A DNA stretch of 64,000 nucleotides from Escherichia coli (GTDB lineage Bacteria > Pseudomonadota > Gammaproteobacteria > Enterobacterales > Enterobacteriaceae): the NCBI RefSeq assembly GCF_003334305.1, contig NZ_QOWS01000012.1; one strand, given 5' to 3'. Under the pieces are notes generated by a model, which was given only the letters and a program-made list of their open reading frames with translations, had not been told where the DNA came from and ran no database searches. The position numbers were made by a program, and so were the translations under genes. Shown here in pieces: positions 4,346 to 6,663 of the stretch; the stretch's first letter is position 1, and each line of letters opens with the position of its first letter.

Positions 4346-6007
4346 TTATTCTACGTTTTCGGCGACGGGAGTTGTTGAGGTTAAGGGTGAAGTCAATGCC
4401 GCCAGTGAGCCGCCTGAAACGCCAATTTCATTGAGCAAGGAGTCAATCAGCGGTGCCTGTGTGCGGTAAGAGAGAGCGGCTGATAATGCTTGTTCCGCCA
4501 GGTTTCCGCCCCCCACATTACCCGTGTTTGCATCACCCGCAGCGCTGCCACGATTCAGACCATCGACCTGAATAATCTTGATACCGTCAATAGATTTCAT
4601 CGGCTCAACGGATTTTTCTATTACCGCAGGTAGCGCCTGCAACAAGGCCAGTTTGAATTTAAGGCTGGTTTGTTCATCAGAAAGTACGTTGATAGCATCG
4701 TTCAGCGCACGTTGTGCTTCTGCTTCCGCCAGACCCTTTTTACGTGTAGCTTCGGCTAACTCAACGATAGCCGCCGCCTGCATCTCTGCGGCTTCTTTTT
4801 CTGCTTTCGCCCGCACGGTCAGTTCAACCGCTTTGGTTTCTGCATCCTGCGCGGCAGCGATTAGGGCAACTTGTTTAGCACGATCGGCTTCTGCGGTCTG
4901 GCGAGTGGTTTCTACGTTTTGTTGCGCACTTACTGCTTCTGCGAGTGCAAGGTTAGCACGCGCTTCTGCCTGGGACTGTTGTTCCGATTTGGCGGCAATA
5001 GCGATCGATTTCGTCTGGTTGGCGATTTCGGTGACCTGCTGTTGTTCGATCTCTTTAATACGAACTTCACGTTCAGCCTCAACCTTTCTTGAGCGGACGG
5101 CCTGCTCGCGCTCGATCTCCGTTTCCTGAATTTGTCGTTCAGCCAGAATTCGCGTCTGCTCTGCTTCACGACGACGTTCAGCTTCAAAAGCCGCAATACG
5201 TGCATTCTGTTCGGCAGTACGGGTTTTAACCTGCTGCTCCTGCTCAAGCGTCATAAACGCTTCTTGTTGTTCAATCTCCAACTTGCGCGAAAGTGCATCA
5301 CGGTTTTTCTCACGCACCGCAACTTCTACATCCTGTTCAACTTCGTTACGTTCGCGACGACGGCGCTCCGTCTCCTGAGTCAGTTTGGTTAAACCTTCGG
5401 CGTCAAAGGCATTGTTCGGATTGAAATGTTCTTTCGAGGTCTGGTTAAAGTTGGTAAGTGAAACGCTTTCCAGCTCAAGACCGTTTTTCGACAGGTCTTC
5501 TGCGACAGTATTTTGTACTCCCTGCACGAAGTTCTCGCGGGTATCCTGTAACTCATGCATGGTCATTTGTGCAGCTGTTGCACGGAGGGCATCGACAAAT
5601 TTATCTTCAACCAACATACGTAAGTCTTCTGGTGATAGCGTGCGTTGCCCCAACGTCTGCGCCGCAGTGGCGATGCCTTCTACAGACGGTTTTACCCGTA
5701 CAAAGAAAGCGACTACTACATCGACACGCATACGATCTTTCGTAATCAGGCTATCAATGGTTGAGCGGCTGACTTCCAGCTTCAGAGTATTCATATTGAT
5801 GGGGATTATTTCATGAAAGATCGGCATCACGATTGCGCCACCGCTCATCACCACTTTTTGCCCACCTAAACCAGTACGAACAAAAGCTTGCTCTGCCGAA
5901 GCGCGACGATAGAGCCTGGCGAAAATAATTCCAATAATAAACAGAATGCATACGGCAATAATCGCGGTAAACATCCAGGAGGGCACAGAATTAACAATAT
6001 CATCCAT
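4346..6007 (-). CDS. yqiK: Flotillin-like SPFH/band 7 inner membrane protein with long Glu/Ala/Gln-rich coiled coil
   Basis: 553 aa ORF; N-terminal TM helix, SPFH-like region, extended EAxR/EQ repeats; position after hldE/sib. Confidence 0.9.
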   Translation of the reverse strand: MDDIVNSVPSWMFTAIIAVCILFIIGIIFARLYRRASAEQAFVRTGLGGQKVVMSGGAIVMPIFHEIIPINMNTLKLEVSRSTIDSLITKDRMRVDVVVAFFVRVKPSVEGIATAAQTLGQRTLSPEDLRMLVEDKFVDALRATAAQMTMHELQDTRENFVQGVQNTVAEDLSKNGLELESVSLTNFNQTSKEHFNPNNAFDAEGLTKLTQETERRRRERNEVEQDVEVAVREKNRDALSRKLEIEQQEAFMTLEQEQQVKTRTAEQNARIAAFEAERRREAEQTRILAERQIQETEIEREQAVRSRKVEAEREVRIKEIEQQQVTEIANQTKSIAIAAKSEQQSQAEARANLALAEAVSAQQNVETTRQTAEADRAKQVALIAAAQDAETKAVELTVRAKAEKEAAEMQAAAIVELAEATRKKGLAEAEAQRALNDAINVLSDEQTSLKFKLALLQALPAVIEKSVEPMKSIDGIKIIQVDGLNRGSAAGDANTGNVGGGNLAEQALSAALSYRTQAPLIDSLLNEIGVSGGSLAALTSPLTSTTPVAENVE

Positions 6008-6033
6008 TATTAAATTTCCTTTTGATTAATAAA

Positions 6034-6663
6034 TTACAATATTTGTGGCCAGGGATTGTTTTCCGCCAAATATCGCGTTGCAGAAAGTCGGCAAATAATT
6101 AACACTTTGTCTCCTTTAGTGAAAAATTTTCCTTCTTCAGGCTCCAGTAGTAAATAATGTATTTGGCCAAATTGATCGGTGAGTTTTCCTTCGCAGGGAT
6201 TACCTGAAGTGGCTTGATGACCGGTAATTAATGCCATGCTACCAATATATTCTTCTTCTGTAATAGCTGAACTATGGTCGCGTGGAATCCAGGGCGCAAC
6301 TATTTTACCGGTATAATGCACCGCAATAATCGTAAACAGTAAACTGACAGGAACCACGAACAGGTTCGACAGTGGTGATTGCCAGACCATGATGCAGGCA
6401 TGCTGCAACAGGATGCCAATAAGACCAAAAAAACCAGCCAGCAAGCAGAGAACGACGAGAGCTGGCAATCTTCCGATATTGAGATAATGAAGTGCCTGGC
6501 TAATATGACCTGTGGTTATGGAATCATAATGGTCAAGATGTGCATCAAGAGCACCGGAGAGCATGTGACCGCAGATAAGCGCTAAAATTTCTAAAAGGCC
6601 GATCAACAGTACAAAGGAAATAGCGAAAAGATAAGGGGTATTATAGTCGGCGAATAAAATCAT
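6034..6663 (-). CDS. yqiJ: NfeD-like inner membrane protein, partner of YqiK
   Basis: 209 aa ORF with several hydrophobic helices, immediately upstream of and co-oriented with yqiK. Confidence 0.85.

Follow-up and report, generated by a model that had tools for sequence, protein, structure and literature searches.

A stretch of 64,000 nucleotides (nt) from Escherichia coli, hereafter the window, carries at positions 4346-6663 the two neighbouring genes yqiJ and yqiK, both on the minus strand, and the segment that encodes YqiK also holds long additional open reading frames (ORFs). The best explanation of the region, held here with high confidence, is that it constitutes the yqiJ-yqiK operon and that the extra ORFs over yqiK are non-coding by-products. 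The RefSeq annotation gives the order hldE, ibsE, a second ibs toxin gene, yqiK, yqiJ and glgS, with the product names "flotillin family protein" for yqiK and "OB-fold-containing protein" for yqiJ. The surrounding 3.7 kb (3500-7200) match many E. coli chromosomes at 100% identity, and a match covering at least 80% of this segment was obtained in 5,333 of 5,426 complete E. coli genomes. Thus, the gene pair proposed in an earlier sequence-only reading of this DNA is borne out by the ORF list, the RefSeq annotation and DNA identity. The features of the region are listed in Table 1.

Table 1. Features in and next to the yqiJ-yqiK region (window positions; aa, amino acids; AF2, AlphaFold model; pLDDT, predicted local distance difference test score).
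Feature	Position	Strand	Description and basis
yqiK	4346-6007	minus	553 aa; flotillin-family SPFH protein; ORF, RefSeq, Pfam, codon score, Foldseek
YqiK membrane-anchor helix	5912-5980	minus	N-terminal, residues 10-32; AF2 helix, hydrophobic sequence
YqiK SPFH (Band 7) domain	5441-5911	minus	residues 33-189; AF2 α/β domain with pLDDT >95, Pfam, profile, SPFH structure match
YqiK long charged helical region	4595-5410	minus	residues 200-471; composition, AF2, Foldseek alignment
yqiJ/yqiK spacer	6008-6033	minus	26 nt; AGGA Shine-Dalgarno motif before the yqiK start
yqiJ	6034-6663	minus	209-aa inner-membrane protein, short-form NfeD-like partner
Intrinsic-terminator-like hairpin	4305-4329	minus	9 pairs, 6 of them G-C, then a T run; consensus scan and sequence
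Shadow ORF, 183 aa	4578-5129	plus	antisense to yqiK codons 293-477; third codon positions shared with yqiK
Shadow ORF, 143 aa	5385-5816	plus	same antisense frame; over the SPFH domain, YqiK codons 64-208
Shadow ORF, 105 aa	4930-5247	minus	on yqiK's own strand, frame +2
Shadow ORF, 86 aa	5132-5392	plus	codon-aligned antisense frame; codon score about 0
SIB antitoxin RNA nearer yqiK	3973-4122	plus	Rfam RF00113, 147.7 bits
Ibs toxin gene, 19 aa	4048-4107	minus	opposite the nearer SIB RNA; RefSeq Ibs family toxin; translation MMKLVIILIVLLLVSFAAY
Second SIB RNA	3597-3746	plus	Rfam RF00113, 142 bits
ibsE, 19 aa	3672-3731	minus	opposite the second SIB RNA; RefSeq; translation MMKFVIILVVLLLLSFPTY

The short spacer and its AGGA motif fit a two-gene operon layout, and the hairpin, which starts 17 nt past the yqiK stop codon, likely marks the operon end. 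The locus was compared with eight other enterobacterial taxa (E. albertii, Salmonella, Citrobacter rodentium, Klebsiella aerogenes, Yokenella, Intestinirhabdus, Kosakonia and Entomohabitans). In the orthologous chromosomal locus of each of them, the gap between yqiJ and yqiK is similarly short, and the pair is kept there together with its neighbourhood of ribB, ubiK, sometimes glgS, hldE and glnE. In the window, in these eight taxa and on a plasmid-like Salmonella contig, yqiJ is adjacent to and co-oriented with the SPFH gene. The pairing of an NfeD-type protein with a flotillin at this locus is already known, being both annotated and published: Hinderhofer et al. (2009) described yqiJ-yqiK as an NfeD-SPFH2 operon and reported nuclear magnetic resonance data on the YqiJ C terminus (PMC2636767), and a later publication termed yqiJ NfeD-like and YqiK a bona fide flotillin. 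With the operon published and the overlapping ORFs explained by composition, as described below, the discovery value of the locus is small.

The assignment of YqiK to the flotillins is carried by domain matches, a family profile and a predicted structure. The Pfam Flot model (PF15975) matches residues 406-530 over its full length (E 1.2e-40), and Band_7 matches residues 39-192 weakly (E 3.9e-4). Searches of solved structures with YqiK or YqiJ as single sequences gave no match, and a profile was needed to reach flotillin. Such a profile, built from 68 diverse YqiK homologues, matched the SPFH domain, residues 10-152, of flotillin-1 (PDB 9bq2, 9l3g) with E 4e-14. An AF2 model of the YqiK monomer (pLDDT 79.6) was compared with solved structures by Foldseek; the best four matches were flotillin-1/2 chains, followed by prohibitin, HflK/C, stomatin, erlin and QmcA. 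Beyond the membrane-anchor helix and the SPFH domain, the model contains helices at residues 200-441, with a dip in confidence at 333-346, and 444-471, then a disordered linker (473-502) and a last helix (503-527). YqiK thus has both hallmarks of the family, an SPFH domain near the N terminus and a flotillin C-terminal domain behind long helices, and its charged helical region is the counterpart of the wall helices in SPFH cages.

YqiJ is matched by the Pfam models YqiJ_N and YqiJ_OB (PF07290). In its AF2 model (pLDDT 80.1) hydrophobic helices at residues 6-30, 68-94 and 100-125 precede a C-terminal OB-fold β-barrel at about residues 140-205, which is the order of parts in short-form NfeD proteins. 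The predicted fold of the barrel matches solved NfeD domains, and the model matches full-length YbbJ (8z5g_B) over 135 residues. The membership of YqiJ in the NfeD family accordingly rests on modelled fold, architecture and gene context, not on sequence: the Pfam NfeD model (PF01957) gave no match to YqiJ even at E <= 10. The reverse view, in which YqiJ is no true NfeD-type partner of YqiK but a membrane protein without such a relationship whose small β-barrel is a coincidence, could appeal to this missing match; in light of the fold, the architecture and the gene context it is considered very unlikely. The classification of the pair as an NfeD/flotillin-SPFH module, made from the letters alone in the earlier reading, is supported by Pfam, the profile search of solved structures, the predicted folds and the literature.

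Three known systems are instructive for what the two proteins might form. Among solved structures, flotillin-1/2 come closest to YqiK both in sequence profile and in fold (Foldseek alignments of about 460-510 columns, E 7e-15 to 3e-12) and share with it the order of SPFH domain, long wall helices and flotillin C-terminal domain. They differ in lacking a transmembrane helix and an NfeD partner and in forming a 44-subunit assembly of two proteins, whereas YqiK has an N-terminal membrane helix and is present as a single gene copy. E. coli QmcA-YbbJ (PDB 8z5g) is likewise a combination of an SPFH protein with an NfeD-like membrane protein and is the other cytoplasm-facing pair in the same genome; both of its chains, which form a 26-subunit cage, were recovered in fold searches with the YqiK and YqiJ models, and it is the best structural template for a possible YqiJ-YqiK assembly. 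On the other hand, QmcA is of the stomatin type and its helical region is far shorter, qmcA lies upstream of ybbJ, which is the opposite gene order, and QmcA, unlike YqiK, can easily be detected both in cells and in detergent-resistant membranes. The third system is FloT (YuaG)/NfeD2 (YuaF) of Bacillus subtilis; the known FloT phenotypes have not been found for YqiK in published work.

Solved SPFH cages enclose a patch of membrane and are built from 24 (HflK/C), 26 (QmcA) or 44 (flotillin-1/2) subunits (PMC12478178). By homology with the flotillin-1/2, QmcA-YbbJ and HflK/C cages, and with the domain architecture and predicted folds established here, we infer that YqiK and YqiJ may interact in a cage of this kind. 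The N-terminal helix would anchor YqiK at the inner membrane, and its subunits would oligomerise side by side through the long helices, forming a dome on the cytoplasmic side of that membrane. By analogy, the dome could fence a membrane patch within which the transmembrane helices of YqiJ are held, and the OB domain of YqiJ may dock onto the SPFH ring.

Several points weigh against the picture of an NfeD-flotillin module, the missing PF01957 match among them. The FloT equivalog model (NCBIfam NF058507) scores YqiK at 86.5 bits (E 2e-24), far below its cut-off of 700; YqiK is a homologue, not an equivalog, of B. subtilis FloT. Native YqiK-GFP (green fluorescent protein fusion) has been published as undetectable and YqiK levels as very low, YqiK has been reported to be absent from detergent-resistant membranes, and deletion of yqiK gave no growth phenotype. 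The cage model, with its supposed assembly and interaction of YqiJ and YqiK, is drawn entirely from homology. Finally, in a Fourier analysis of hydrophobic positions over YqiK residues 200-471, both as a whole and in 35-residue windows, the 3.5-residue period of a coiled coil was not significant, a result that leaves room for such a structure; the best local periodicity, near residue 434, reached P=0.06.

The helical region had been described in the sequence-only reading as an extended, highly repetitive coiled coil rich in Glu, Ala, Gln and Arg. Its biased composition is confirmed: in residues 201-450 (window 4658-5407) Glu, Ala, Gln, Arg and Lys make up 60-68%, and sequence entropy falls from about 3.7 bits in the rest of the protein to about 3.0. 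Repetitiveness, in contrast, was not found in this allele. Tandem Repeats Finder reported no repeat over 4300-6700, a search for direct and inverted repeats over the same interval returned only three short, weak direct-repeat families, a BLASTP comparison of YqiK with itself showed no internal repeat, and the Glu-Ala run in the region is only a short AEAEA.

The same region is where the length of YqiK varies. Public E. coli and Salmonella YqiK proteins are 521-575 amino acids long, and every length difference is an in-frame insertion or deletion within the helical region (window about 4690-5250, residues about 254-440). Among the variants, the number of EQ copies changes, AERRREAEQTRIL, AEADRAK, AEKEA or LAEATRKKG is duplicated or lost, and stretches of 9-38 residues flanked by short repeated motifs are deleted; judged from the sequences, these events look like slippage between short direct repeats. 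Such variants seem rare. In a spread sample of complete genomes, 21 of 22 single-piece, full-coverage matches span 1662 nt as in the window, and the remaining one spans 1661.

The origin of the overlapping ORFs had been sought in the coiled coil, as opposite-strand products of its repeat. The three ORFs cited in support do exist. However, that at 4930-5247 lies on the yqiK strand and that at 5385-5816 lies over the SPFH domain. Nor is their number exceptional: yqiK carries 4.2 ORFs of at least 50 amino acids per kb, the longest of 183 amino acids, which is mid-range among the 43 long ORFs of the window, and a shadow ORF of 243 amino acids lies over the neighbouring hldE. Out-of-frame stops, summed over the five alternative frames, amount to 22.6 per 100 codons in yqiK and 20.8 within its helical region, compared with 23.1 ± 5.4 in the 42 other genes. 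The description of the shadow ORFs as many is therefore not upheld, the ORF load and stop density of yqiK being average for the window. What stands of the proposed cause is that composition opens one antisense frame; there is no repeat, and the effect extends over the whole gene.

Only one antisense frame of yqiK is unusually open, with 6 stops in 553 codons, or 1.1 per 100; the other 42 genes have a median of 4.0 and go no lower than 1.7. The stop density of this frame is similar over the SPFH domain (1.0 per 100 codons) and over the helical region (0.8). The frame is the one in which the wobble positions of both strands coincide, and a stop there requires either a Tyr codon behind a codon ending in a pyrimidine or a His or Gln codon behind a codon ending in T; all six stops observed in the window show one of these two contexts. 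YqiK contains 0.4% Tyr and 0.5% His, compared with 3.3% and 2.4% in the other genes of the window. Among its 43 CAN codons (40 Gln and 3 His), 22 stand behind a Glu, Gln, Lys or Met codon, and codons for these four residues never end in T. The frame is thus nearly free of stops across yqiK because Tyr and His are scarce and about half of the CAN codons follow codons that cannot end in T. The cause is amino-acid content across the whole of yqiK and not a repeat. A general avoidance of T before CAN codons was looked for in the other genes of the window and was not seen (0.264 versus 0.275 overall). Non-coding antisense ORFs have long been described (Merino 1994 and Silke 1997, as cited in PMC3454372). 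The yqiK frame resembles these classic shadow ORFs in that the make-up of the coding frame accounts for long stop-free frames over real genes; it differs in being the wobble-coincident frame and in its main cause, which is amino-acid content and not codon bias as in highly expressed genes.

The shadow ORFs overlapping yqiK look like non-coding artefacts, as had been surmised from the sequence, and this is supported by codon scoring, synonymous-permutation nulls, stops in orthologues and absence from protein collections. Codon-usage scoring of both strands, the check proposed at the outset, gave log-odds of +0.33 bits per codon for yqiK and negative values for the three cited ORFs (-0.33 for 4578-5129, -0.33 for 5385-5816 and -0.42 for 4930-5247), and the yqiK frame scored best in every 180-nt sliding window from 4346 to 6007. 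When synonymous codons were permuted with the YqiK sequence fixed, the open frame contained 8.2 ± 2.2 stops compared with the 6 observed, and the longest ORF measured 135 ± 46 amino acids compared with 183 (P=0.15); the other frames were likewise not significant. In the same test on the eight orthologous genes, 5 of 45 gene-by-frame comparisons of open runs gave P <= 0.05, each time in a different gene and frame, and there was no consistent excess. None of five yqiK shadow ORFs was present among about 15 billion predicted proteins or matched an NCBIfam model.

Stops in relatives were used as the measure of constraint. When the two strands share their wobble positions, an antisense "protein" appears conserved automatically, and neither this conservation nor that of synonymous sites carries information on function; synonymous-site constraint was set aside as a test of dual coding for its low power. 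ORF 4578-5129 is broken by stops in E. albertii, K. aerogenes, Intestinirhabdus, Kosakonia and Entomohabitans. In six of the eight orthologues (E. albertii, Salmonella, C. rodentium, Yokenella, Intestinirhabdus and Entomohabitans) a stop at codon 121, 147 or 162 breaks ORF 5385-5816, and in two of six other E. coli alleles ORF 5132-5392 has a stop at codon 239. There are 16 sites at which a change silent in yqiK creates an antisense stop. At these sites E. albertii has gained 4 stops compared with 2.5 expected under neutrality, and six divergent E. coli alleles have gained none compared with 0.7-1.1 expected per allele. There is no sign of selection keeping the antisense frame open.

Two observations run counter to a purely non-coding status. 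The stop density of the open frame is the lowest among the 43 genes of the window, and ORFs 4578-5129 and 5385-5816 are intact in all seven E. coli alleles examined, for which fewer than about 1.1 stop gains were expected per allele. They lead to the question whether one antisense ORF, most plausibly the 183-amino-acid ORF 4578-5129, could be a young, E. coli-specific overlapping gene translated at a low level. If so, its interruption in E. albertii and other genera would reflect recent origin and not lack of function, and E. coli is reported to have overlapping genes that are translated from the antisense strand (10.1101/2020.11.18.388249). The boundaries of the ORF are identical in the seven alleles even though these differ by 4-7%, and shuffling of codons over the whole gene predicts more stops than are found (13.0 ± 3.0 versus 6, P=0.013). 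Read as selection, this last depletion was rejected, as it vanishes when the order of residues is kept; it arises because of which residues precede Gln. With the YqiK sequence fixed, both stop count and ORF length are as expected. ORF 4578-5129 starts with TTG, contains no ATG anywhere and has no obvious Shine-Dalgarno motif, its translation would consist of 21% Ala, 21% Ser and 8% Cys, and its codon score is that of a non-coding frame. TTG starts also count against the cited shadow ORFs. A consensus scan revealed no plus-strand promoter-like site inside yqiK. The ORF is interrupted in E. albertii, where YqiK is 97% identical, and in four other taxa; stop gains are at or above the neutral expectation, and the ORF was never called among the 15 billion protein predictions. 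Neither yqiK, yqiJ nor b3051 is mentioned in the supplementary files of a survey that used ribosome profiling to study overlapping genes in E. coli, which is weak evidence since the tables may use locus tags. Taken together, a young overlapping gene is regarded as extremely improbable, and the non-coding explanation of the shadow ORFs is retained. Accordingly, a long antisense ORF over a charged helical protein is best judged against a null that keeps the protein fixed and by stop gains in a sister species.

One further ORF, of 68 amino acids (6379-6585, plus strand), is antisense to yqiJ codons 27-95, opposite the part for the hydrophobic N terminus. It was rejected as a gene despite a coding-like codon score of +0.24 bits per codon; of six other E. 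coli alleles, five have an internal stop in it, as do several genera. It is listed as a hypothetical protein in a few E. coli annotations.

Beyond the 3' end of yqiK lie two copies of a Sib/Ibs type I toxin-antitoxin locus. Both consist of a match to Rfam RF00113 well above its gathering score of 56 and of a hydrophobic 19-amino-acid Ibs ORF on the opposite strand. The nearer copy ends 224 nt from the yqiK stop codon. The adjacency of the sib/ibs repeats and yqiK, remarked upon in the sequence-only reading, is thus real, whereas the link hinted at there found no support, six of the eight taxa having no called ibs gene at this place. Such a link could take the form of a functional module, for instance a flotillin scaffold that handles small membrane toxins. 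Apart from the short distance in the window, the arrangement recurs at the same place in E. albertii with two sib/ibs copies and in Salmonella with one. However, the interval from yqiK to hldE lacks a called ibs gene in C. rodentium, K. aerogenes, Yokenella, Intestinirhabdus, Kosakonia and Entomohabitans, where the spacers were not scanned for sib RNA or uncalled ibs ORFs, and in these six taxa yqiJ-yqiK and hldE are conserved all the same. The number of sib/ibs copies is one or two among E. coli strains, the terminator-like hairpin separates yqiK from the repeats, and neither YqiJ nor YqiK matches the defence-system models of PADLOC. No basis was seen for a functional link, the adjacency not being conserved, and a shared module is accorded next to no probability. 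As to copy number, E. coli TUM1586 and 19KM1831 each have one sib/ibs copy between hldE and yqiK compared with the two in the window (3597-4122).

The yqiK gene is more variable within E. coli than its neighbours. Genomes with 90-95% identity to the window allele number 1,814 of 5,425 for yqiK, 271 for yqiJ (6034-6663) and 2 for hldE (2119-3552). In six sampled E. coli alleles, yqiK differs from the window by 3.9-6.9%, nearly all at third codon positions, and yqiJ by 1.4-2.4%, while in E. albertii the order is reversed (12.8% for yqiK, 16.8% for yqiJ). The differences in yqiK are patchy, with up to 24 per 90-nt bin at codons about 480-510. From these patterns, yqiK diversity within E. coli looks like a recombination mosaic or old polymorphism.

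Parts of the locus also occur outside the chromosomal setting. A fragment of the chromosome flanked by the insertion sequence (IS) IS1 is found on about 40 small plasmids of E. coli. In the IncX1 plasmid pCP53-38k (NZ_CP033093.1, 3979-6899), which was inspected, the fragment corresponds to about window 6092-8990 at 98.6% identity and contains genes for a fimbrial chaperone and a fimbrial protein (yqiH and yqiI, by comparison with another of the loci collected, L018), glgS and a 3'-truncated yqiJ. A complete, diverged yqiJ-yqiK pair is present on the 105-kb Salmonella contig AAOTGI010000020.1 (3995-6385), at a distance of about 1.1 kb from an IncFII repA gene; its YqiJ shares 64% identity with that of the window, and its YqiK-like ORF of 581 amino acids has not been called as a gene. 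The sequence context suggests that this pair is a plasmid-borne second copy. Finally, among the E. coli genomes NZ_CP027388.1, NZ_CM149861.1 and NZ_CP127004.1, one yqiK is interrupted by an IS3-family element (in a complete genome), one is truncated, and one yqiJ is split by IS1. Because yqiK or yqiJ is disrupted in these three genomes, the operon is dispensable in some strains.

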